From a virus: DNA of 12,330 nt. The notes below the pieces were generated by a model. The model was given only the letters and a program-made list of their open reading frames with translations, did not search any database and was not told where the DNA came from. The stretch lies in the UHGV virus genome UHGV-0317858. One strand, 5' to 3'. The first letter of the stretch is position 1. Each line of letters begins with the position of its first letter. This document shows, in pieces, positions 596-12,330 of this stretch. A program made the position numbers and the translations under genes.

Positions 596-2053
596 ATGAA
601 TACATCTCATGTAAGAGTTGTTACTCATATGTGTGGGTTCCTGGTTTGGCTCTATAGTCTTTCAATGTTGCCACCAATGGTTGTAGCATTGTTTTATAAA
701 GAAAAAAGCCTGTTCGTTTTCTTTATAACTTTCGTTATATTTTTTTGCATTGGTGGCGGAGCGTGGTATACAACTAAGAAATCTGGCATTCAATTACGTA
801 CCCGTGATGGGTTTATTATAATTGTAATGTTTTGGATTTTGTTTTCTGTTATTAGTGCATTCCCTTTATGGTTTGACTCAGAACTTAATTTAACGTTCAT
901 TGATGCTCTGTTTGAAGGGGTTTCTGGAATAACAACAACAGGAGCAACTGTAATTGATGATGTTAGTTCATTACCTCGGGCATATTTGTACTATCGGTCA
1001 CAGTTAAATTTTATAGGTGGTTTAGGAGTTATTGTTCTGGCGGTTGCAGTATTGCCATTATTGGGTATTGGTGGTGCAAAGCTTTATCAGTCAGAAATGC
1101 CGGGGCCATTTAAGGATGACAAACTCACTCCCCGCCTGGCCGATACGTCACGGACACTGTGGATAACTTATTCTTTATTAGGTATTGCTTGTATTGTCTG
1201 TTATAGACTTGCAGGAATGCCTTTGTTTGATGCTATTTGTCACGGGATTTCCACAGTTTCGCTTGGTGGTTTCTCAACTCATAGCGAGAGTATCGGATAT
1301 TTTAATAACTATTTGGTTGAGCTGGTGGCTGGTTCTTTTTCCCTGCTATCGGCTTTCAACTTCACTCTTTGGTATATTGTTATTAGCAGAAAAACGATAA
1401 AACCTTTAATCAGAGATATTGAACTTCGTTTCTTTCTGTTAATAGCCTTAGGGGTGATCATTGTTACCTCTTTCCAGGTCTGGCATATAGGTATGTATGA
1501 CTTGCATGGAAGTTTTATTCATTCGTTTTTTCTTGCCAGCTCCATGCTCACTGATAATGGTTTAGCTACGCAGGATTATGCAAACTGGCCCACGCACACG
1601 ATAGTGTTTTTGCTGTTGTCAAGTTTCTTTGGGGGATGTATAGGTTCAACCTGTGGTGGAATTAAGTCACTTCGATTTCTTATACTTTTCAAACAAAGCA
1701 AACACGAGATAAATCAGCTTTCTCATCCCAGAGCGTTGTTGAGTGTAAATGTAGGAGGGAAGATAGTTACAGATCGTGTAATGAGGTCTGTATGGAGTTT
1801 CTTTTTTCTTTATACTCTCTTCACGGTGTTTTTTATACTGGTGTTAAATGGTATGGGATATGATTTTCTTACATCATTTGCAACAGTGGCTGCATGTATT
1901 AATAATATGGGATTAGGTTTTGGGGCTACTGCATCGTCATTCGGAGTGCTTAATGACATTGCAAAATATTTAATGTGCATAGCTATGATTCTTGGTCGCC
2001 TTGAAATTTATCCTGTTATTATATTGTTTTCAGGTTTTTTTTGGCGCTCCTAA
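596..2053 (+). CDS. trkG: TrkH/TrkG-family potassium uptake membrane protein (prophage-borne TrkG)
   Basis: The product from ATG 596 (MNTSHVRVVTHMCGFLVWLYSLSMLPP...FSGFFWRS, 485 aa) matches E. coli TrkG as I recall it. It is highly hydrophobic with multiple predicted transmembrane segments and glycine-containing pore-loop-like motifs (GVSGITTTG, GLGVIVLAVAVLPLLGIGG). An alternative TTG start at 578 is better positioned relative to AGGTGG (566-571) and would add 6 residues (MKEYLD). Confidence 0.9.
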   Translation: MNTSHVRVVTHMCGFLVWLYSLSMLPPMVVALFYKEKSLFVFFITFVIFFCIGGGAWYTTKKSGIQLRTRDGFIIIVMFWILFSVISAFPLWFDSELNLTFIDALFEGVSGITTTGATVIDDVSSLPRAYLYYRSQLNFIGGLGVIVLAVAVLPLLGIGGAKLYQSEMPGPFKDDKLTPRLADTSRTLWITYSLLGIACIVCYRLAGMPLFDAICHGISTVSLGGFSTHSESIGYFNNYLVELVAGSFSLLSAFNFTLWYIVISRKTIKPLIRDIELRFFLLIALGVIIVTSFQVWHIGMYDLHGSFIHSFFLASSMLTDNGLATQDYANWPTHTIVFLLLSSFFGGCIGSTCGGIKSLRFLILFKQSKHEINQLSHPRALLSVNVGGKIVTDRVMRSVWSFFFLYTLFTVFFILVLNGMGYDFLTSFATVAACINNMGLGFGATASSFGVLNDIAKYLMCIAMILGRLEIYPVIILFSGFFWRS

Positions 2054-2190: not shown

Positions 2191-2985
2191 ATGAGCGAGA
2201 AATTAAAGATAGTCTATCGCCCATTACAAGAATTGTCACCGTATGCGCACAACGCCAGGACGCACAGTACTGAGCAGGTGGCACAACTGGTAGAAAGTAT
2301 TAAGCTATTCGGCTGGACTAATCCGGTGCTGATTGACGAAAAGGGCGAAATTATTGCGGGTCACGGTCGTGTTATGGCGGCTGAAATGCTCAAAATGGAT
2401 TCTGTTCCGGTCATTGTTCTGTCTGGCCTGACGGATGAGCAGAAAAAGGCGTACCGCCTGGCAGATAATCGCCTGCCGATGAATGCTGGCTGGGATGAAG
2501 ATCTGTTGCGGATGGAGCTGTCGGACCTAATCAATGCTGATTTTGATGTCTCCCTGACAGGCTTCATCCCGACAGAAATTGATGAACTGTTGACGGATGT
2601 TTTGCCCGGTACAGGAAATGAGGAGGAGCCGTATACGACGAAAATTGATACGCCTGTTTATGAGCCGTCGGGCGGTAAACCGGATATCAGTGAACTGTAC
2701 GACGATACGAAAACTCAGGAGCTGATCAGCCGGATACGTTCGGCGTCCCTTGATCCTGATATTGAGAAATTCCTCCTGTGTGCGGCAGAACGTCACACAG
2801 TGTTTAATTTCAGCAGAATTGCGGACTATTACGCTCATGCCCCCGCTGAAATTCAGTGCCTTTTCGAGGAGTCGGCGCTGGTGATCATTGATTATCAGCA
2901 GGCTATTGAAAATGGATTTGTCCGAATGACGCAGCGCATGGTGGAGATCATGCATGGCGGGGAGGAGGAGGAGGAATATGCGTGA
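2191..2985 (+). CDS. ParB/Srx-like N-terminal domain protein (ParB-like nuclease or DNA-binding fold) with an acidic C-terminal region of unknown function ending in poly-Glu
   Basis: 264 aa. The N-terminal 90 residues (YRPLQELSPYAHNARTHSTEQVAQLVESIKLFGWTNPVLIDEKGEIIAGHGRVMAAEMLKMDSVPVIVL...AYRLADNRL) carry the hallmarks of the ParB N-terminal/sulfiredoxin fold (hydrophobic strand, then G-H-x-R, then AA). The C-terminal region has no motif I recognise. The gene ends ...[11 protein letters not shown] and its stop overlaps the next start. Confidence 0.75.
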   Translation: MSEKLKIVYRPLQELSPYAHNARTHSTEQVAQLVESIKLFGWTNPVLIDEKGEIIAGHGRVMAAEMLKMDSVPVIVLSGLTDEQKKAYRLADNRLPMNAGWDEDLLRMELSDLINADFDVSLTGFIPTEIDELLTDVLPGTGNEEEPYTTKIDTPVYEPSGGKPDISELYDDTKTQELISRIRSASLDPDIEKFLLCAAERHTVFNFSRIADYYAHAPAEIQCLFEESALVIIDYQQAIENGFVRMTQRMVEIMHGGEEEEEYA

Positions 2986-3712
2986 TGATTTTTGCGCCTT
3001 TATTCTGACTCACGGGCGACCGGACAAAGTTCTGACTTACCGGACGTTGCGTCGTGCTGGCTATACCGGGAAAATTTTTATCGTTGTTGATGATGAAGAT
3101 AAGACACGGCATCAGTACATGGCTGAATTTGGTGAACAGGTGCTGGTATTTTCCAAAGCCGATATTGCCAGTCGTTTTGACGAAGCCGATAATTTTGGTG
3201 ATCGCCGCTCAATTTTTTACGCCCGTAATGCCTGTTTCGACCTGGCAAAACTGGTCGGGTGTAAATACTTCATTCAGCTCGATGATGATTATCACGAGTT
3301 CCAGTTTCGGGTGGATCGCAACTATGACCAGGCCTATTTCCCGATAAGGAAACTGGATGCGATCCTTTCTGAAATGCTGGCGTATTACGAATCAATACCC
3401 GCGCTTTCCATCGCTATGTCGCAGGGCGGGGATTTTCTTGGTGACAATGGCGGCCATGCTTCGTGGGTGAAACGCAAGGCAATGAACAGCTTTATCTGTT
3501 CGGTTGATCGACCGTTCTCATTCATGGGGCGCATTAACGAGGATGTGAATACGTACACGAATCTCGGTCGCTGTGGTGAATTGTTTATGACGATCGGTGC
3601 TGTCCAGTTAGGGCAGAAACAGACGCAGAAAAACAGCGGCGGAATGACCGAGCTGTATCTGGATTCCGGAACCTGCCGCCGCGCCCGTTCAATATCCGGA
3701 TGCGCAGGATGA
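2978..3712 (+). CDS. GT-A-fold (family 2-like) glycosyltransferase-like protein, probably C-terminally disrupted at the junction with J-derived DNA
   Basis: From ATG 2978 ([43 protein letters not shown]...[13 protein letters not shown]...) the spacing and composition fit the GT-A signature: N-terminal beta-strand, then hydrophobic-VVDD-x-D at residues 36-41, then a DxD motif (DDD at residues 102-104) about 60 residues later, as in SpsA-type enzymes. The GGAGGAGGAGGAGGAA run just upstream of ATG 2978 serves as the Shine-Dalgarno; the ORF-track start at 2954 lacks one. The last 13 or so codons appear to be J-gene DNA read out of frame. Confidence 0.55.
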
Positions 3713-6639
3713 CGCCGGACAGCACCACAGACCAGCTGCAGAACAAAACGCTCTGGTCGTCATACACCGAAATCATCGATGTGAAACAGTGCTACCCGAA
3801 CACGGCACTGGTCGGCGTACAGGTGGATTCGGAGCAGTTCGGCAGCCAGCAGGTGAGCCGTAATTATCATCTGCGCGGGCGTATTCTGCAGGTGCCGTCG
3901 AACTATAACCCGCAGACTCGGCAATACAGCGGTATCTGGGACGGAACGTTTAAGCCAGCATACAGCAATAACATGGCCTGGTGTCTGTGGGATATGCTGA
4001 CCCATCCACGCTACGGCATGGGGAAACGTCTTGGTGCGGCGGATGTGGACAAATGGGCGCTGTATGTCATCGGCCAGTACTGCGACCAGTCAGTGCCGGA
4101 CGGCTTTGGCGGCACGGAGCCGCGCATCACCTGTAATGCGTACCTGACCACACAGCGCAAGGCGTGGGATGTGCTCAGTGATTTCTGCTCGGCGATGCGC
4201 TGTATGCCGGTATGGAACGGGCAGACGCTGACGTTCGTGCAGGACCGACCGTCGGATAAGGTGTGGACCTATAACCGCAGTAATGTGGTGATGCCGGATG
4301 ATGGCGCGCCGTTCCGCTACAGCTTCAGCGCCCTGAAAGACCGCCATAATGCCGTTGAGGTGAACTGGATTGACCCGAACAACGGCTGGGAGACGGCGAC
4401 AGAGCTTGTTGAAGATACGCAGGCCATTGCCCGTTACGGTCGTAATGTTACGAAGATGGATGCCTTTGGCTGTACCAGCCGGGGGCAGGCACACCGCGCC
4501 GGGCTGTGGCTGATTAAAACGGAGCTGCTGGAGACGCAGACCGTGGATTTCAGCGTCGGCGCAGAAGGGCTTCGCCATGTACCGGGCGATGTTATTGAAA
4601 TCTGCGATGATGACTATGCCGGTATCAGCACCGGTGGTCGTGTGCTGGCGGTGAACAGCCAGACCCGGACGCTGACGCTCGACCGTGAAATCACGCTGCC
4701 ATCCTCCGGTACCACGCTGATAAGCCTGGTTGACGGAAGTGGCAATCCGGTCAGCGTGGAGGTTCAGTCCGTCACCGACGGCGTGAAGGTAAAAGTGAGC
4801 CGTGTTCCTGAGGGTGTTGCTGAATACAGCGTATGGGGGCTGAAGCTGCCGACGCTGCGCCAGCGCCTGTTCCGCTGCGTGAGTATCCGTGAGAACGACG
4901 ACGGCACGTATGCCATCACCGCCGTGCAGCATGTGCCGGAAAAAGAGGCCATCGTGGATAACGGGGCGCACTTTGACGGCGAACAGAGTGGCACGGTGAA
5001 TGGTGTCACGCCGCCAGCGGTGCAGCACCTGACCGCAGAAGTCACTGCAGACAGCGGGGAATATCAGGTGCTGGCGCGATGGGACACACCGAAGGTGGTG
5101 AAGGGCGTGAGCTTTATGCTTCGCCTGACCGTGGCAGCGGACGACGGCAGTGAGCGGCTGGTCAGCACGGCCCGGACGACAGAAACCACATACCGCTTCA
5201 GGCAGCTGGCGCTGGGGAACTACAGGCTGACAGTCCGGGCGGTAAATGCGTGGGGGCAGCAGGGCGATCCGGCATCGGTATCGTTCCGGATTGCCGCACC
5301 TGCAGTGCCGTCGCGGATTGAGCTGACGCCGGGCTATTTTCAGATAACCGCCACGCCGCATCTTGCCGTTTATGACCCGACGGTACAGTTTGAGTTCTGG
5401 TTCTCGGAAAAGCGGATTACCGATATCAGGCAGGTTGAAACCACAGCCCGCTATCTTGGCACGGCGCTGTACTGGATAGCCGCCAGTATCAATATCAAAC
5501 CGGGCCATGATTATTATTTTTACGTTCGCAGTGTGAACACCGTTGGCAAATCGGCATTCGTGGAGGCTGTTGGTCAGCCGAGTGATGATGCATCCGGCTA
5601 TCTGGATTTTTTCAAAGGCGAGATAGGGAAAACCCATCTGGCTCAGGAGCTGTGGACGCAGATTGATAACGGTCAGCTTGCGCCTGACCTGGCTGAAATC
5701 AGGACGTCCATTACGGATGTCAGCAATGAAATCACGCAGACCGTCAATAAGAAACTGGAAGACCAGAGTGCGGCAATTCAGCAGATACAGAAGGTTCAGG
5801 TTGATACAAATAATAACCTGAACAGCATGTGGGCTGTGAAGCTGCAGCAGATGCAGGACGGACGCCTTTATATCGCGGGTATTGGTGCCGGTATTGAGAA
5901 CACCCCTGACGGCATGCAGAGTCAGGTGCTGCTGGCGGCGGACAGGATTGCGATGGTTAATCCTGCGAATGGCAACACAAAACCGATGTTTGTTGGTCAG
6001 GGCGATCAGATATTCATGAACGACGTGTTCCTGAAACGCCTGACGGCCCCCACCATTACCAGCGGTGGAAATCCACCGGCATTTTCCCTGACACCGGACG
6101 GAAAGCTGACTGCTAAAAATGCGGATATCAGTGGCAGTGTGAATGCGAACTCCGGGACGCTCAACAACGTCACGATTAATGAGAACTGTCAGATTAAGGG
6201 GAAACTGTCAGCCAATCAGATTGAAGGCGATATTGTCAAAACAGTGGGTAAGGCTTTCCCGCGGGACTCCCGGGCACCGGAGCGGTGGCCATCAGGGACC
6301 ATTACCGTCAGGATTTATGACGATCAGCCTTTTGACAGGCAAATTGTTATTCCAGCGGTGGCATTCTGCGGCGCTAAACATGAGCGGGAGAATAACGATA
6401 TTTATTCGTCATGCCGCCTGATAGTGAAGAAAAATGGTGCTGAAATTTATAACCGTACCGCGCTGGATAATACGCTGATTTACAGTGGTGTTATTGATAT
6501 GCCAGCTGGTCACGGCCACATGACGCTGGAGTTTTCGGTGTCAGCATGGCTGGTAAATGACTGGTATCCCACAGCAAGTATCAGCGATTTGCTGGTTGTG
6601 GTGATGAAGAAAGCCACCGCAGGCATCAGTATCAGCTGA
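3700..6639 (+). CDS. J: Tail tip attachment / host specificity protein J, N-terminally truncated remnant (C-terminal roughly 980 residues)
   Basis: The translation ([76 protein letters not shown]...) matches lambda gpJ from an internal position as I recall it, including the C-terminal receptor-binding region, which here diverges from lambda. The frame is open only back to a stop at 3577-3579 and no N-terminal J sequence is present. ATG 3700 is an internal Met, so expression as an independent protein is uncertain and the locus may be annotated as a pseudogene. Confidence 0.85.
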
Positions 6640-6654
6640 ATTTTATAACCCATA

Positions 6655-6684
6655 TACGGGCGCCAGAAATGGCGCCTTTTTTAT
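6655..6684 (+). terminator. Rho-independent terminator downstream of J
   Basis: GGCGCCA GAAA TGGCGCC hairpin (7-bp G/C-rich stem, tetraloop) followed immediately by TTTTTTATT. Confidence 0.6.
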
Positions 6685-6706
6685 TGCAGAAAAGCGAGAG
6701 GTAATT

Positions 6707-7306
6707 ATGCGTAAAGTTTGTGCAGCCATTTTGTCCGCAGCCATCTGTCTGGCCGTATCCGGTGCGCCTGCATGGGCGTCTGAGCAGCAGGCCACACTGA
6801 GCGCAGGGTATCTTCATGCCCGTACGAACGCTCCCGGCAGCGAAAATCTGAACGGGATTAACGTGAAATACCGTTATGAGTTTACGGACACGCTGGGGCT
6901 GATTACGTCATTCAGTTATGCCAACGCTGAAGATGAGCAAAAAACGCATTACAGCGATACCCGCTGGCATGAGGATTCCGTGCGTAATCGCTGGTTCAGC
7001 GTGATGGCGGGGCCGTCTGTGCGCGTGAATGAATGGTTCAGCGCGTATGCGATGGCGGGTATGGCTTACAGCCGTGTGTCGACTTTCTCCGGGGATTATA
7101 TCCGCGTAACTGACAACAAGGGGAAAACGCACGATGTGCTGACCGGAAGTGATGACGGTCGCCACAGCAACACGTCTCTGGCGTGGGGAGCTGGCGTGCA
7201 GTTTAACCCGACCGAATCCGTGGCCGTTGACGTCGCTTATGAAGGCTCCGGCAGCGGTGACTGGCGTACCAACAGTTTCATCGTTGGTGTCGGTTATAAA
7301 TTCTGA
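6707..7306 (+). CDS. lomR: Lom outer-membrane beta-barrel protein (Ail/Lom/PagC family)
   Basis: 199 aa with a signal peptide (MRKVCAAILSAAICLAVSGAPAWA then SEQQ), near-identical over most of its length to lambda Lom as I recall it, and ending in the aromatic C-terminus VGVGYKF typical of outer-membrane beta-barrels. Preceded by an RBS (GAGAGG). The gene is intact. Confidence 0.9.
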   Translation: MRKVCAAILSAAICLAVSGAPAWASEQQATLSAGYLHARTNAPGSENLNGINVKYRYEFTDTLGLITSFSYANAEDEQKTHYSDTRWHEDSVRNRWFSVMAGPSVRVNEWFSAYAMAGMAYSRVSTFSGDYIRVTDNKGKTHDVLTGSDDGRHSNTSLAWGAGVQFNPTESVAVDVAYEGSGSGDWRTNSFIVGVGYKF

Positions 7307-7333
7307 TTAGCCAGGTAACACAGTGTTATGACA

Positions 7334-7362
7334 GCCCGCCGGTTCAGGCGGGCTTTTTTGTG
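7334..7362 (+). terminator. Rho-independent terminator downstream of lom
   Basis: AGCCCGCC GGTTCA GGCGGGCT hairpin (8-bp stem) followed by TTTTTTG. Confidence 0.6.
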
Positions 7363-7370
7363 GGGGGAAT

Positions 7371-10300
7371 ATGGCAGTACGGATTTCAGGTGTACTGAAA
7401 GATGGCGCAGGTAAGCCGATACAAAACTGCACCATTCAGCTAAAGGCCAGGCGCAACAGCACCACGGTGGTGGTGAACACAGTGGCCTCAGAAAACCCGG
7501 ATGAAGCCGGGCGTTACACAATGGACGTCGAGTATGGTCAGTACAGCGTCAGTCTGTTGGTGGAGGGATTCCCGCCGTCACACGCCGGGATTATCACCGT
7601 ATATGAGGACTCAAAGCCGGGCACACTGAATGATTTCCTCGGTGCAATGACGGAGGATGATGTCCGGCCAGAGGCACTGCGCCGTTTTGAACTGATGGTG
7701 GAAGAGGTGGCGCGTAACGCGTCCGCAGTGGCACAGAACACGGCAGCCGCGAAGAAGTCAGCCGGCGATGCCGGCACATCTGCCCGTGAGGCGGCAACCC
7801 ATGCGACTGATGCTGCAGGCTCAGCACGCGCAGCCAGCACGTCAGCCGGACAGGCCGCTTCGTCGGCTCAGTCAGCGTCTTCCAGCGCAGGAACGGCATC
7901 AGCAAAGGCCACTGAAGCATCAAAAAGTGCTGCCGCTGCAGAGTCCTCAAAAAGCGCGGCGGCCACCAGTGCCGCTGCGGCAAAAACGTCAGAAACGAAT
8001 GCGGCAGCGTCACAACAATCAGCAGCCACTTCAGCATCCACCGCGACCACGAAAGCGTCAGAAGCTGCCACCTCAGCCCGGGATGCGTCGGCTTCAAAAG
8101 AGGCGGCAAAATCATCAGAAACGAGCGCAGCCTCGAGCGCCAGCAGCGCAGCTTCCTCGGCAACGGCGACAGCAAATTCTGCGAAGGCGGCAAAAACGTC
8201 CGAGACGAACGCCAAGGCTTCTGAAACGGCAGCGGGACAGAGTGCCTCAGCTGCGGCAGGCTCAAAAACAGCGGCTGCGTCGTCTGCCAGTGCCGCGTCA
8301 ACAAGTGCCGGGCAGGCCTCAGCCAGTGCCACCGCCGCCGGAAAATCGGCAGAAAGTGCTGCATCGTCCGCTTCAACAGCCACAACGAAGGCTGGCGAAG
8401 CCGCTGTACAGGCCAGCGCAGCAGCGAGGTCTGCTTCCGCAGCGAAGACATCCGAAACGAATGCGAAAGCGTCGGAAACCCGTGCAGAATCCTCAAAAAC
8501 GGCAGCCGCATCGTCCGCCAGTTCGGCAGCGTCATCGGCATCATCTGCGTCTGCTTCAAAAGATGAGGCGACCAGACAGGCGTCAGCAGCGAAGGGCAGC
8601 GCCACGACGGCATCCACGAAAGCAACAGAGGCGGCAGGCAGTGCGACGGCAGCATCTCAGAGCAAAACTGCTGCTGAATCCGCTGCGACCCGTGCGGAAG
8701 CTGCTGCTGATCGTGCTGAAGAGATTGCCGGTGCAGTTGCGATGGAAGACGCAAGCCTTACAACTAAAGGTGTTGTGAAACTTAGCAGTGCTGTTGATAG
8801 CACCAGTGAATCGCTGGCCGCAACGCCAAAAGCAGTTAAAGCAGCCAATGACAATGCGAATAGCAGGGTGCCATCTAACCGAAAAGTTAACGGAAAAGCA
8901 CTGACTGCGGATATAACATTAACGCCGAAAGATATTGGTACTTTAAATTCAGTAACGATGTCTTTCTCTGGCGGGGCTGGGTGGTTCAAACTGGCTACGG
9001 TTACCATGCCACAAGCGAGTTCCATCGTTTACATCGCATTGATTGGTGGCGCTGGTTACAACGTCGGTTCCCCACATCAGGCAGGCATTTCAGAACTGGT
9101 TCTACGAGCAGGCAATGGAAACCCCAAAGGAATTACCGGGGCTTTGTGGAAGCGTACAGCCGTCGGATTAACGAATTTCGCCTGGATCAACACATCCGGC
9201 GATACATATGATATTTACGTTGAGATTGGCAATTATGCGACTCGTGTAAATATCCATTGGGATTGTACTGCAAATGCGACAGTTTCTATTTATACATCGC
9301 CAACATATTCAGCGAGTAAGCCTTCCAGCGTTACCGATGGTGTTGTTTATACGATGTATAGCACACATCAGAAACCGACGCCGTTAGATATTGGAGCACT
9401 GCCAACAACCGGAGGAACAGTTTCAGGTCCGTTGTCTGTTACAGGTGGATTAACTGGTTCATTGAATGGTAATGCAAGTACAGCCACGAAATTGCAGACG
9501 GCAAGATCTATCGGTGGAGTTGTTTTCGACGGTTCTGCAAATATTAACCTTCCAGGTGTAAACACTACGGGTAATCAGAACACCACTGGTAATGCTGCAA
9601 CTGCTACAAAACTTCAGACTGCAAGAAAAATATCCGGTGTTCCATTTGATGGTTCTACTGATATCACTTTAACCGCCGCGCATGTGGCTGCTTTTGCCAG
9701 AAGAGCAACGGATGCGTATGCCGATGCGGATGGGGGCGTTCCATGGAATGCCGAATCAGGCGCTTACAATGTCACCCGCTCTGGCGACAGCTATATTCTG
9801 GTTAACTTCTATACCGGAGTCGGAAGTTGCCGGACCTTGCAGATGAAGGCGCATTACAGAAATGGTGGTCTGTTCTACCGTTCTTCAAGAGACGGTTATG
9901 GTTTTGAAAGTGGTTGGGCGCAGCTTTACACCTCGGCTCATCCTCCTGCAGAGTTTTATCCAGTCGGTGCACCAATCCCGTGGCCATCAGATACCGTTCC
10001 GTCTGGTTATGCCCTGATGCAGGGGCAGACTTTTGACAAATCTGCCTACCCGAAACTTGCTGCCGCTTATCCGTCAGGCGTGATCCCTGATATGCGTGGC
10101 TGGACGATTAAGGGCAAACCTGCCAGTGGTCGTGCCGTATTGTCTCAGGAACAGGACGGCATTAAATCGCACACCCACAGCGCCAGCGCATCCAGTACGG
10201 ATTTGGGGACGAAAACCACATCGTCGTTTGATTACGGCACTAAATCCACGAATAACACCGGGGCGCATACGCACAGTCTGAGTGGCTCTACGGGGTCTGC

Positions 10301-10661
10301 CGGTGCTCATACTCATGGTAATGGTATTCGTTGGCCAGGAGGCGGCGGTTCTGCGTTAGCATTTTATGATGGCGGTGGGTTCACTTATGTCAAGGATTCA
10401 CAGTATCAAGTAAGCCCGGGGACTTCTTCCAGTAGATCGTATTATCAACGTATTCAGACACAGTCAGCAGGTGCTCATACCCACTCGCTGTCTGGTACTG
10501 CAGCAAGTTCTGGCGCACATGCACATACTGTAGGTATTGGTGCGCATACGCACTCGGTTGCGATTGGCTCACATGGACACACCATCACCGTTAACGCTGC
10601 TGGTAACGCGGAAAACACCGTCAAAAACATCGCATTTAACTATATTGTGAGGCTTGCATAA
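7371..10661 (+). CDS. stfR: Side tail fibre protein (lambda Stf-like N-terminus, Ala/Ser-rich quasi-repeat shaft, His-rich C-terminal receptor-binding domain)
   Basis: 1096 aa. The N-terminus ([49 protein letters not shown]...) matches lambda/Rac Stf. A long low-complexity A/S/T/K/E region follows. The C-terminal part carries a duplicated ATKLQTAR...FDGS motif and multiple H-x-H motifs (GAHTHS). The stop TAA overlaps the tfa start (TAATG). Confidence 0.9.
7700..8760 (+). repeat. Imperfect tandem coding repeats specifying the Ala/Ser-rich fibrous shaft of Stf
   Basis: Recurring peptide units such as [24 protein letters not shown] and [26 protein letters not shown] appear several times. The region is stop-free in several frames on both strands, which produces the spurious ORFs at 7768-8778 (+), 7594-8754 (-) and 7868-8617 (-). 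Confidence 0.6.
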
Positions 10662-11245
10662 TGACATTCAGAATGAGTGAACAACCACGGACCATAAAAA
10701 TTTATAATCTGCTGGCCGGAACTAATGAATTTATTGGTGAAGGTGACGCATATATTCCGCCTCATACAGGTCTGCCTGCAAACAGTACCGATATTGCACC
10801 GCCAGATATTCCGGCAGGCTTCGTGGCTGTTTTCAACAGTGATGAGGCATCGTGGCATCTCGTTGAAGACCATCGTGGTAAAACGGTCTATGACGTGGCT
10901 TCCGGCGACGCGTTATTTATTTCTGAACTCGGCTCATTACCGGAAAATGTCACCTGGTTATCCCCGGAAGGGGAGTTTCAGAAGTGGAACGGTACAGTCT
11001 GGGTGAAGGATACGGAAGCAGAAAAACTGTTCCGGATCCGGGAGGCGGAAGAAACAAAAAACAGCCTGATGCAGGTAGCCAGTGAGCATATAGCGCCGCT
11101 TCAGGATGCTGTAGATCTGGAGATCGCAACGGAAGAAGAGGCGTCGTTGCTGGAAGCCTGGAAGAAGTATCGGGTATTGCTGAACCGTGTTGATACATCA
11201 ACTGCACCTGATATTGAGTGGCCTGCAAATCCTGTCAGGGAGTAA
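10661..11245 (+). CDS. tfaR: Tail fibre assembly protein (Tfa chaperone)
   Basis: 194 aa ([54 protein letters not shown]...[19 protein letters not shown]), near-identical to lambda Tfa as I recall it. The start overlaps the stf stop. Confidence 0.9.
11081..11200 (+). repeat. Direct repeat copy 1 (the 3-prime end of tfa), about 87% identical to 12130-12249
   Basis: Hand alignment of the two 120-nt segments gives about 15 mismatches with no gaps. Both encode [19 protein letters not shown][20 protein letters not shown]. Confidence 0.7.
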
Positions 11246-11299: not shown

Positions 11300-11968
11300 C
11301 TATTTTTTCCCTGAAGCGGAAAACATTACTACAGTACCTTTAATCTTGGTTTTAACATTCTCGAAATGCTCTGAGAGTATATGTGTTAAGCCTTCTTCGG
11401 AATCTTTTGTGTTTGAAAAGATGCCTTTTTGATTGTAAATGCGCATCAGTTTTTGACCGAAGCTATTGTGCACAACGCCGTCACCAAGAATTGTGGCTCC
11501 GTATAGAGTTCCATCGTCAGTTAAGGCCTGCGCCGCATTGCGTATTACACAGCTTTTTGTAGATATATTTCCAGGCAGGCAGTGAAGAAGGTAAAACATG
11601 GAAATGGAATCAAATTGACCATGTAACGCCGCGGGATAAGGTTCAAAAACATCATGGCTAATTTTATGTTTAATTTTTGATTCCCCAGCCCTTGTAGATG
11701 CCGCGTTCAGGCTAGTTTCGTTCAAATCCATTAAAGATATCAGACTACTCTCAGGTACGTGAGTAAGGTAAAACCCAGTTCCAACACCAATATCCAGATG
11801 GTTGTTACCTAAATGTTCCAGAAAGTGTGGAAGGAGGTGTTCCTTTGTAGGACATCCCCATGCAAGCCGATTTGATACTCCCAAAACCCACCAGTCATAA
11901 AGCTTTAGGGTAAGTGGTGTGTAAATTTTAGCCCCATCATCTGTGTTTTTTTTCATTAATTTCACCAT
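11300..11968 (-). CDS. Class I (Rossmann-fold) SAM-dependent methyltransferase of unknown substrate; AT-rich cargo gene
   Basis: 222 aa with a canonical motif I (HLDIGVGTGFY), an acidic residue closing beta-2 (LISLMDLNE), a motif II-like segment (FDSISMFYLLHCL) and a motif III-like segment (LTDDGTLYGATI). No DPPY/NPPY or other DNA-methyltransferase target-recognition motifs. Visibly AT-rich relative to the neighbouring tail genes, with a weak RBS. Confidence 0.6.
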   Translation of the reverse strand: MVKLMKKNTDDGAKIYTPLTLKLYDWWVLGVSNRLAWGCPTKEHLLPHFLEHLGNNHLDIGVGTGFYLTHVPESSLISLMDLNETSLNAASTRAGESKIKHKISHDVFEPYPAALHGQFDSISMFYLLHCLPGNISTKSCVIRNAAQALTDDGTLYGATILGDGVVHNSFGQKLMRIYNQKGIFSNTKDSEEGLTHILSEHFENVKTKIKGTVVMFSASGKK

Positions 11969-12024: not shown

Positions 12025-12330
12025 ATGCTGCCGCAGCATAGCGATATTGAAATAGCCTGGTATGCTTCGATACAGCAGGAGCCGAATGGCTGGAAGACCG
12101 TCATCATACAGTTCTACATCCAGGAGTTCAGTGAGTATATTGCGCCACTGCAGGATGCTGTAGATCTGGAAATCGCAACGGAGGAAGAAAGATCGTTGCT
12201 GGAGGCATGGAATAAATATCGGGTATTGCTGAATCGTGTTGATACATCAGTAGCTCTGGGTATGAAGCTGATTGTAACTCATGTTACAGTAACGGTCATT
12301 GCTATCTCGAAGGTGCAAAATGTATATTGA
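12025..12330 (+). pseudogene. Chimeric ORF carrying a Tfa C-terminal domain signature (probable tail fibre assembly gene remnant)
   Basis: 101 aa. The central segment ([38 protein letters not shown]) is a Tfa C-terminal domain, but the N-terminal 35 residues and the last 26 residues ([26 protein letters not shown]) do not resemble Tfa. The stop coincides with the window end, so downstream context cannot be seen. Confidence 0.4.
12130..12249 (+). repeat. Direct repeat copy 2 (tfa 3-prime end homologue inside a chimeric ORF)
   Basis: See copy 1; same orientation, about 1.05 kb downstream. Confidence 0.7.

Follow-up and report, generated by a model that had tools for sequence, protein, structure and literature searches.

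A Rac-family prophage of Escherichia coli that has lost 17.3 kb from a recurrent, one-directional deletion hotspot

Deletions that keep one end fixed are known where DNA is cleaved at a defined site: they are anchored at the site-specific nick of the M13 and pC194 replication origins, and Int promotes lambda deletions at att. Broken DNA in E. coli can also be sealed by RecA-independent, microhomology-assisted (alternative) end joining, which normally degrades both ends. The Rac prophage of E. coli K-12 became defective through an internal deletion of packaging, head and tail genes, and it retains, at the Rac site, the order lysis genes, trkG, ynaK, then lom, stf and tfa. In lateral transduction, as studied for in situ headful packaging by P22, a pac-type terminase cuts the integrated prophage and proceeds one way past terS (PMC8575938). 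Here we describe a Rac-family prophage that has lost 17.3 kb and whose left breakpoint falls in a 16-nt hotspot, which we think reflects a recurrent site-specific break (probability of this reading as a whole about 0.85).

The DNA analysed (the window, 12.3 kb at full length) takes in the late, right-hand portion of a lambdoid E. coli prophage belonging to the Rac family. Its features are given below, where TAGT stands for TET-associated glycosyltransferase (PF20691, a family assigned by profile match, the enzymatic activity being putative), L008–L010 are three fetched loci that match the window at 99.9–100%, and GDSC2BY4G is an intact Rac-site prophage.

1–458: end part of the Rz/Rz1 lysis genes
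596–2053, plus strand: trkG, potassium transporter, Rac-type prophage cargo (PF02386 TrkH in the same gene of L008–L010; trkG annotation in matching complete-genome regions)
2191–2985, plus strand: ParB/Srx-domain gene, ynaK-like, intact, 264 aa (PF02195, phrog_620)
2978–3712, plus strand: chimeric, truncated TAGT ORF, 244 aa (PF20691, E = 5.6e-35; DNA identity to the intact gene)
3667–3674, no strand: retained part of the breakpoint zone, offsets 1–8 of CGGAACCTACGTTAA after GGATTC; the window's junction class is offset 8
3675–6639, plus strand: 5'-truncated tail-tip gene J (Phage-tail_3, Ig_J, Ig_J_second, Phage_Tail_Tip, Ig_GpJ_C)
6707–7306, plus strand: lom (Ail/Lom outer-membrane protein), retained (PF06316 in the same gene of L008; Ail/Lom annotation)
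7371–10661, plus strand: stf, side tail fibre, 1096 aa, retained (PF08400 and PF07484 in L008; annotation in GDSC2BY4G)
10661–11245, plus strand: tfa, tail fibre assembly, retained (PF02413 in L008)
11300–11968, minus strand: class I SAM-dependent methyltransferase, cargo, at the right end of the prophage
12025–12330, plus strand: fragment of a tail fibre assembly gene (PF02413; partial tfa annotation in GDSC2BY4G)

The window shows the gene order of the Rac site (lysis genes - trkG - ynaK(ParB/Srx) ... lom - stf - tfa), and complete genomes carry near-identical DNA at the Rac site, with recET/trkG on one side and uspF/ompN/nifJ on the other. A sequence-only reading of this DNA had called the prophage Rac-like, and both the gene order and this location bear the label out; the placement comes from the complete-genome matches, as the window's own chromosomal flanks fall outside the 12.3 kb. 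The same reading held that the tail fibre, lom and cargo genes had been kept, and stf, tfa, lom, trkG and the methyltransferase are indeed all present in the window.

It had further proposed a deletion junction between the glycosyltransferase-like gene and J, and we placed this junction to the base, assigning the parent of each flank by BLAST against 5,426 complete RefSeq E. coli genomes. Identity to an intact glycosyltransferase-like gene (NZ_CP019250, L001) was 100% over window positions 2675–3674 and ended at 3674, and identity to intact J genes (L003, L004 and L006) began at 3670, reaching 99.5% to full-length 1159-aa J genes. The flanks thus map to the TAGT gene and to J, as claimed, with the breakpoint within AACCT (3670–3674), a 5-bp microhomology common to both parents. 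With a slash marking the joint, the TAGT parent reads ...GGATTCCGGAACCT/ACGTTAAAAG, the J parent ...GGTGGGTAACCT/GCCGCCGC, and the product ...GGATTCCGGAACCT/GCCGCCGC; the left end, ...TTCCGGAACCT, lies inside TAGT codon 233 and is joined to AACCT/GCCGCC, at J codon 171. The intact left parent is a 310-aa gene (WP_001204033.1) to which PGAP gives the name 'hypothetical' or 'GREB1-related'. The reading frames around the joint were also as described from the letters, the J frame being closed by a TGA at 3577–3579 and open from 3580, with recognisable J DNA from 3670, and the upstream ORF stopping at a TGA (3710–3712) out of frame with J. Two counts needed correction: the J-derived codons of that ORF number 12 rather than about 13, and its product is not 245 aa long but 244 aa from the annotated ATG at 2978, or 252 aa from the ATG at 2954.

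Two intact Rac-site prophages, 13KWH46 and GDSC2BY4G, have the same genes as the window both on its left (trkG, the ParB/Srx gene, the 310-aa TAGT gene) and on its right (J, lom, stf, tfa), and carry 17,289 and 17,287 bp, respectively, between the breakpoints. This segment encodes a 69-aa ORF, terS, terL, the portal (DUF4055), a Mu-F-like head protein and the scaffold, followed by the P22-type capsid protein, head-tail connectors, tail tube, ydaY, tape measure and M-, L-, K- and I-like genes. The genes terS through I are absent between positions 3674 and 3675 of the window and present in both relatives, so that the suspected removal of terminase, portal, head and tail-shaft genes amounts to 17.3 kb. 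GDSC2BY4G also ends, like the window, in the unusual combination of a SAM-methyltransferase and a tfa fragment; since it matches both flanks, unusual right end included, both flanks come from one prophage type, and at the level of sequence the junction is confirmed as a real deletion inside a single prophage. With the packaging, head and tail-shaft genes gone, the prophage is predicted from its gene content to be unable to make particles. The 17.3 kb were lost in a single illegitimate joining, or perhaps in two events of which one was nested in the other.

Residues 1–232 of the chimeric TAGT ORF are native and residues 233–244 come from out-of-frame J DNA, such that the native C-terminal 78 of 310 residues are lost and the truncation proposed for the glycosyltransferase-like gene holds. 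What is left matches the PF20691 profile at 121.6 bits (cut-off 27.5) over positions 4–205 of 205, and also phrog_842. In the loci examined, no TET/JBP gene was seen beside the TAGT gene, and in 69 of 74 loci, drawn from many phyla, the gene immediately 5' of the TAGT homologue encodes a ParB homologue. Intact homologues do not share the C-terminus of the window ORF: those from Proteobacteria, Bacteroidota, Firmicutes and other phyla are 279–310 aa long and conserved to about residue 279, well beyond residue 232. The C-terminal segment (about 233–279), which is conserved in 45 homologues and 74 loci across phyla and in which Y233, K235, F237, Y238, P244, S245, R258, H261 and W265 are invariant, is missing from the window ORF. 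A protein that keeps the whole Pfam domain and lacks this conserved module is, we predict, probably inactive.

The predicted loss of the J N-terminus also stands, with 170 of 1159 codons gone and J DNA starting at codon 171; full-length J homologues are 1159–1165 aa long, which argues against a J product that naturally starts at the internal Met. The remnant retains 989 codons, in which the Phage-tail_3, Ig_J, Ig_J_second, Phage_Tail_Tip and Ig_GpJ_C domains were all matched (E 1e-31 to 1e-43), and at its N-terminus only profile positions 99–125 of 126 (the last 27) of FNIII-A_GpJ are left. The first ATGs in the J frame, at 3700 and 3709, would open a possible ORF to 6639 of 979 or 976 aa. The ATG at 3709 overlaps the TGA of the upstream ORF as ATGA, and one may speculate that translation of the J remnant is coupled to that of the upstream ORF. 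Genome annotation should regard both the 244-aa 'hypothetical protein' and the 976-aa 'J' as deletion artefacts and not as genes of a new design.

We compared the window's breakpoint with those of other strains, using junction DNA from loci encoding chimeric proteins, from five complete genomes and from loci found by an IMG/VR and metagenome scan. At least 22 distinct DNA-level junction classes, some of which could be nested derivatives of others, cut the TAGT gene within 16 nt (...GGATTC/CGGAACCTACGTTAA). All 22 classes keep ...CTGGATTC and break in the 16 nt that follow, CGGAACCTACGTTAA (offsets 0–15), with a minor cluster at offsets 12–15. Four of the classes come from the five complete genomes: PSJ-23, LWY6 and strain 41 each contribute one, and TUM17668 and QML220614 share the fourth. 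PSJ-23, the best BLAST hit combining both flanks, carries a different deletion that runs from TAGT into gene I, with a TAGT end point (...GGAACC/CCCCGC) 1 base from that of the window. A second, AACC-mediated deletion in a PSJ-23-type junction could yield the window's junction, and loss of 9 nt could turn L022 into L016. At the protein level, many E. coli homologues are chimeras that depart from the intact sequence at residues 231–235, with tails derived from terS, tail tube, gene I, stf, tfa and other genes, and five further protein tails in the 90%-identity cluster of the window protein diverge at residues 232/233. An assembly misjoin is an unlikely origin for the hotspot classes, since their microhomology is at most 5 nt and four of them lie in five finished genomes. 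We have high confidence that both the hotspot and the deletion are real.

The losses at this site are one-sided. Among complete genomes, 907 contain the 200 nt to the left of the site, 869 the 200 nt to the right, and 869 contain both; some 38 genomes thus have the left side only, and essentially none has the right side only. Among IMG/VR loci, 11/117 anchored on the left were broken at the site, compared with 0/113 anchored on the right. Every mapped deletion extends rightward, the shortest reaching terS after 520 bp and the longest reaching tfa after 24.7 kb, and none of the 22 classes is leftward, an outcome with P between 2e-7 and 2e-3 under reciprocal exchange. Because the right-flank genome count equals the intact count (869), there is no inserted element at the site; a target for an intron, IS or integrating element was rejected, as the complete genomes contain no insertion alleles.

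The joints themselves follow a pattern. Microhomology at the junction classes is 0–5 nt, and the shared bases start exactly after TTCCGG in 10 of the 17 classes with a known partner. Partner-derived sequence begins with AA in 15/18 classes (P = 4e-14) and with TA in two. Alignment of the partner sites at TTCCGG^AA revealed, on the deleted side, G at -2 in 9/12 and C at -4 in 7/12, such that partner sites resemble C.G.^AA. L020 and L025 differ solely at a mismatched base, as expected from two resolutions of one heteroduplex. From these features we infer that a left DNA end, fixed within about 16 nt, pairs with similar short patches to its right. A hairpin or cruciform at the site was rejected, a 120-nt DNA fold being no better than shuffled sequence (z = -0.75), and the sole palindrome there is of 8 bp (TTCCGGAA). 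Protection of the left end by Chi was also rejected, as the only Chi in the window lies 2.3 kb to the left. Among Superficieibacter and Serratia homologues, too few for a statistical test, TTCCGGAACC was not kept at synonymous positions.

Several of these features could be accommodated by a reciprocal exchange, either site-specific or topoisomerase-type, that acts on pseudo-sites (by PinR, an integrase or DNA gyrase subunit exchange). The resemblance of partner sites to the TAGT site extends across the inferred crossover (C at -4 and G at -2 to one side, AA at +1/+2 to the other), pinR is present in many Rac prophages, and AACC-TA-CGTT is loosely like AAACC-NN-GGTTT, the core of invertase sites. 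Such an exchange, however, predicts deletions both ways, in conflict with the uniformly rightward losses, and its junctions should fall at one phosphodiester bond and not be spread over 16 nt, of which only offsets 7–8 fit an invertase centre. The window's prophage moreover has no pin gene, and the genome counts on the two flanks leave no room for an inserted element. Taken together, these points make a reciprocal exchange quite improbable. A Pin/Hin/Gin crossover site, at which exchange takes place at one fixed central dinucleotide between sites with AAACC/GGTTT half-sites, was rejected on the same spread of offsets (0–15) and on partner sites without half-sites, and matches to the invertase core pattern in the window were no more frequent than chance. 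A XerCD/dif-like site was rejected by inspection: CTACGTTAAAA matches the XerD arm at 8/11 positions, with the cleavage register off by 3 nt and no XerC arm.

A one-off microhomology deletion, arising by replication slippage or from a random break at a position with nothing special about it, would be in keeping with the 5-bp microhomology at the window's junction. Prophage decay by deletion is common, and different junctions do exist, in K-12 Rac (ynaK/ydaY) and in Z142-3 (window-equivalent 3113); the K-12 Rac deletion, with its junction in ynaK, was rejected as a hotspot event. The distribution of breakpoints was assessed in an unbiased set, the IMG/VR and metagenome loci anchored 77 nt upstream of the hotspot. 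These yielded 0 junction classes in the 77 nt upstream, 8 at offsets 5–15 and 5 in the next ~400 nt, and the clustering at offsets 5–15 had a binomial P of 1.3e-9. With at least 22 other classes starting in the same 16 nt, and all of them one-sided, the hotspot statistics strongly disfavour a one-off event, which we regard as distinctly improbable. These results indicate that prophage decay at the TAGT locus is not random, but that a nucleotide-precise, one-directional hotspot has made many defective Rac variants.

The same clustering might be produced by selection and not by mutation, if only fusions within a disordered linker (residues 218–233) left an N-terminal domain that can fold and does no harm, so that no others survive. 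The intact TAGT protein, as modelled by AlphaFold2, has a confident core (residues 1–213), a disordered stretch at 218–233 (pLDDT <50) and a small, less confident C-terminal sub-domain; the window's break falls in the disordered stretch, and the full Pfam TAGT domain is retained. The linker nevertheless spans ~48 nt, yet no break occurs in its upstream 36 nt, and short out-of-frame tails and long in-frame fusions both occur. Selection would also leave unexplained the AA / C.G. pattern of the partner sites and the fact that no junction at all retains the right side, and we consider it highly improbable.

None of the 5,426 complete RefSeq E. coli genomes contained the window's junction. The identical 244-aa chimera, deposited in NCBI as an E. 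coli hypothetical protein (EFE8028143.1 and others), is nevertheless encoded by at least 39 contigs of this species in assemblies of NCBI, ENA and Logan (89 index blocks), one contig being of 4.74 Mb; its presence on so many contigs shows that the scar is inherited in one E. coli lineage and is not an assembly artefact. A genome carries lambdoid J, stf and lysis genes several times over (at a median of 3 places), which can mislead assemblers, but the chance of an artefact or a two-prophage chimera is negligible, as the independent NCBI, ENA and Logan assemblies, including the 4.74-Mb contig, carry the same junction, a k-mer misjoin is not possible from 5 bp of shared sequence, and one intact Rac-site prophage, GDSC2BY4G, matches both flanks together with the methyltransferase right end. 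Of the three fetched loci, L009 carries a 1,286-bp inversion inside the J remnant and L010 a further deletion that takes out lom, an extra decay that fits a J remnant free of constraint. The junction itself documents one E. coli lineage disarming its Rac prophage with cargo and tail-fibre genes kept.

For the origin of the hotspot, we propose a recurrent site-specific break or nick at or just to the right of TTCCGG^AACCTACGTTAA. The left end would stay protected and the DNA to its right would be lost over a variable distance, after which the ends would be sealed by end joining at patches resembling C.G.^AA(CCT). As the source of the break we prefer, tentatively and by analogy, the prophage's own headful terminase, which might cut pac while the prophage is still integrated, with packaging or degradation then running toward terS. 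TerL (Terminase_6N/6C) and TerS (Terminase_2), together with the DUF4055 portal and the Mu-F-like head protein, point to a headful-type (pac) packaging module, and the hotspot, as the candidate pac position, lies 450 bp upstream of terS. In P22, packaging begins while the prophage is still integrated, and pac sends it only toward the 3' end of terS (PMC8575938). A pac-type packaging direction would explain why DNA is lost on the terS side only. It speaks against this source that a cell with its late genes switched on would usually lyse, leaving few survivors.

The hotspot zone TTCCGG^AACCTACGTTAA could accordingly be named as the Rac-family pac site or as the target of a prophage nickase, for example the adjacent ParB/Srx protein, although we hold either identification to be doubtful. 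A ParB/Srx nickase, a topoisomerase-type enzyme or a recombinase acting at pseudo-sites are possible sources of the break as well. Against pac at the hotspot, P22-type pac sites lie within terS, whose 5' end holds another candidate, a four-copy AAAA(A/C)TGCGCA(G/A)A repeat, and the hotspot sequence is not kept at synonymous positions in the two other genera. No pac sequence hallmark was identified at the hotspot, and 0/10 phage records with the full module start there; in four of these ten the first base lies exactly 2,996 nt 5' of the TAGT gene, which presumably marks an assembly break at a repeat. A 12-nt cos reading, which places nicks at offset 3 on the top strand and offset 15 on the bottom strand, fits both junction clusters but was dropped as the main idea, the terminase being of the headful type.

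If a phage enzyme does cause the hotspot, prophage domestication would be partly self-inflicted and predictable from sequence. The junction spectrum would then constitute a free in vivo map of the packaging or nicking site and of the rules of E. coli end joining. A programmed, repeated and unidirectional loss of morphogenesis genes would make an active prophage harmless and cryptic with its cargo kept, namely trkG, lom, the tail fibre and the methyltransferase.

Set against known systems, the window's locus resembles familiar defective Rac prophages, and the recurrent one-directional hotspot was not found described; our literature search returned no relevant description of a Rac deletion hotspot or a Rac pac site. 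The locus shares with K-12 Rac its site, its gene order and its inactivation by internal deletion. In K-12 Rac, however, ynaK is joined directly to ydaY and the TAGT gene is gone altogether, whereas the window keeps an intact ynaK-like gene, 232 TAGT codons and 989 J codons, and has a methyltransferase at its right end in place of pinR. Alternative end joining likewise leaves junctions with 0–5 nt of microhomology and loses DNA at the break, but at the hotspot every junction keeps the left end to within 16 nt. Deletions anchored at a nick or at att are similar in that one end is fixed at the cleavage site and the other is variable, with little or no homology; they differ in that the anchor here lies inside a prophage coding gene and the deletions are natural variants across strains. 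We know of no nicking enzyme, origin or att site at the hotspot position, and a cell that lived on with its chromosome resealed after a deletion from pac would, to our knowledge, be without precedent. Lateral transduction departs from the present case in that DNA leaves in capsids and the cells die, yet its direction, toward and beyond terS, matches every deletion observed here.

The TAGT gene (glycosyltransferase-like, PF20691) and a ParB/Srx-domain gene form a two-gene cassette at window 2191-3712. In 69 of 74 species-representative loci (L215-L288, covering Proteobacteria, Bacteroidota, Firmicutes, Veillonella, Planctomycetes and others), a ParB homologue was located directly 5' of the TAGT homologue, and TAGT identity was ~50% throughout the taxonomic range of these loci. 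We noticed no TET/JBP gene adjoining the ParB/TAGT cassette in the loci examined.

At the 3' end of the cassette, the TGA that closes the chimeric TAGT ORF shares bases with an ATG lying in the frame of the J remnant (the 5'-truncated tail-tip gene), the two reading ATGA at window 3709-3712, and gene callers place the start of a 976-aa "J" at ATG 3709. Speculatively, the deletion could by chance have produced a translationally coupled TAGT/J-remnant pair. Two minor clusters of chimeric breakpoints were also observed among TAGT homologues, at residue 212 (window about 3608-3613) and at residue 250, the latter being absent from the window. At the protein level, three distinct tails followed ...GAVQL at residue 212 (P0025, P0129 and P0131), and two followed ...SCVKI at residue 250 (P0001 and P0005). 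These clusters flank the main hotspot, the 16-nt zone around residues 232/233 where many deletions begin, at a distance of ~60 nt on each side; IS insertions may lie behind part of these residue-212 and residue-250 breakpoints.

Two features of the region deleted from the window are visible in L001, the NZ_CP019250 locus with an intact TAGT gene. The 5' end of terS carries four direct copies of AAAA(A/C)TGCGCA(G/A)A within 64 nt (L001 7340-7403), an array that codes for an AQK-rich repetitive stretch and could serve as a TerS binding array, making it an alternative candidate for pac, the headful packaging start site. Between TAGT and terS lies a 69-aa ORF (L001 6989-7198), likewise deleted from the window, which aligns with the central part (positions 157-218 of 319) of the small-terminase PHROG family phrog_309 at E = 1e-17; the ORF looks like a relic, or a split-off piece, of another terS.

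The window's lineage is still decaying, as indicated by damage in two of the loci that carry the identical chimeric TAGT protein: L009 contains a 1,286-bp inversion within the J remnant (L009 11767-13052, window-equivalent 4744-6029), and L010 an 802-bp deletion (around L010 13590, window-equivalent 6568-7369) that removed lom and joined the J end to stf. The lone Chi site of the window (GCTGGTGG; 1321-1328, plus strand) is located within trkG; its orientation is the one that would shield the left arm if RecBCD entered at the junction. The distance is 2.3 kb, however, and we rejected this role.

Among deposited "phage" records, the four entries ON470581, ON470585, ON470587 and ON470602 (20-22 kb) all have their start or their end at precisely 2,996 nt upstream of TAGT, and this common boundary suggests an assembly boundary at a repeat, not true genome ends.

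Upstream of the window, on the same contigs, the loci of its lineage (L008-L010) carry the following cargo 5' of the Q-like and lysis genes:

L008-L010 1-3132: cytosine-5 DNA methylase (PF00145), Methyltransf_35 protein and HATPase_c_3 protein

At the equivalent place, the intact Rac-site prophage GDSC2BY4G carries an ATP-dependent nuclease and a DNA cytosine methyltransferase; the genes at this position are variable cargo, with a possible link to defence.
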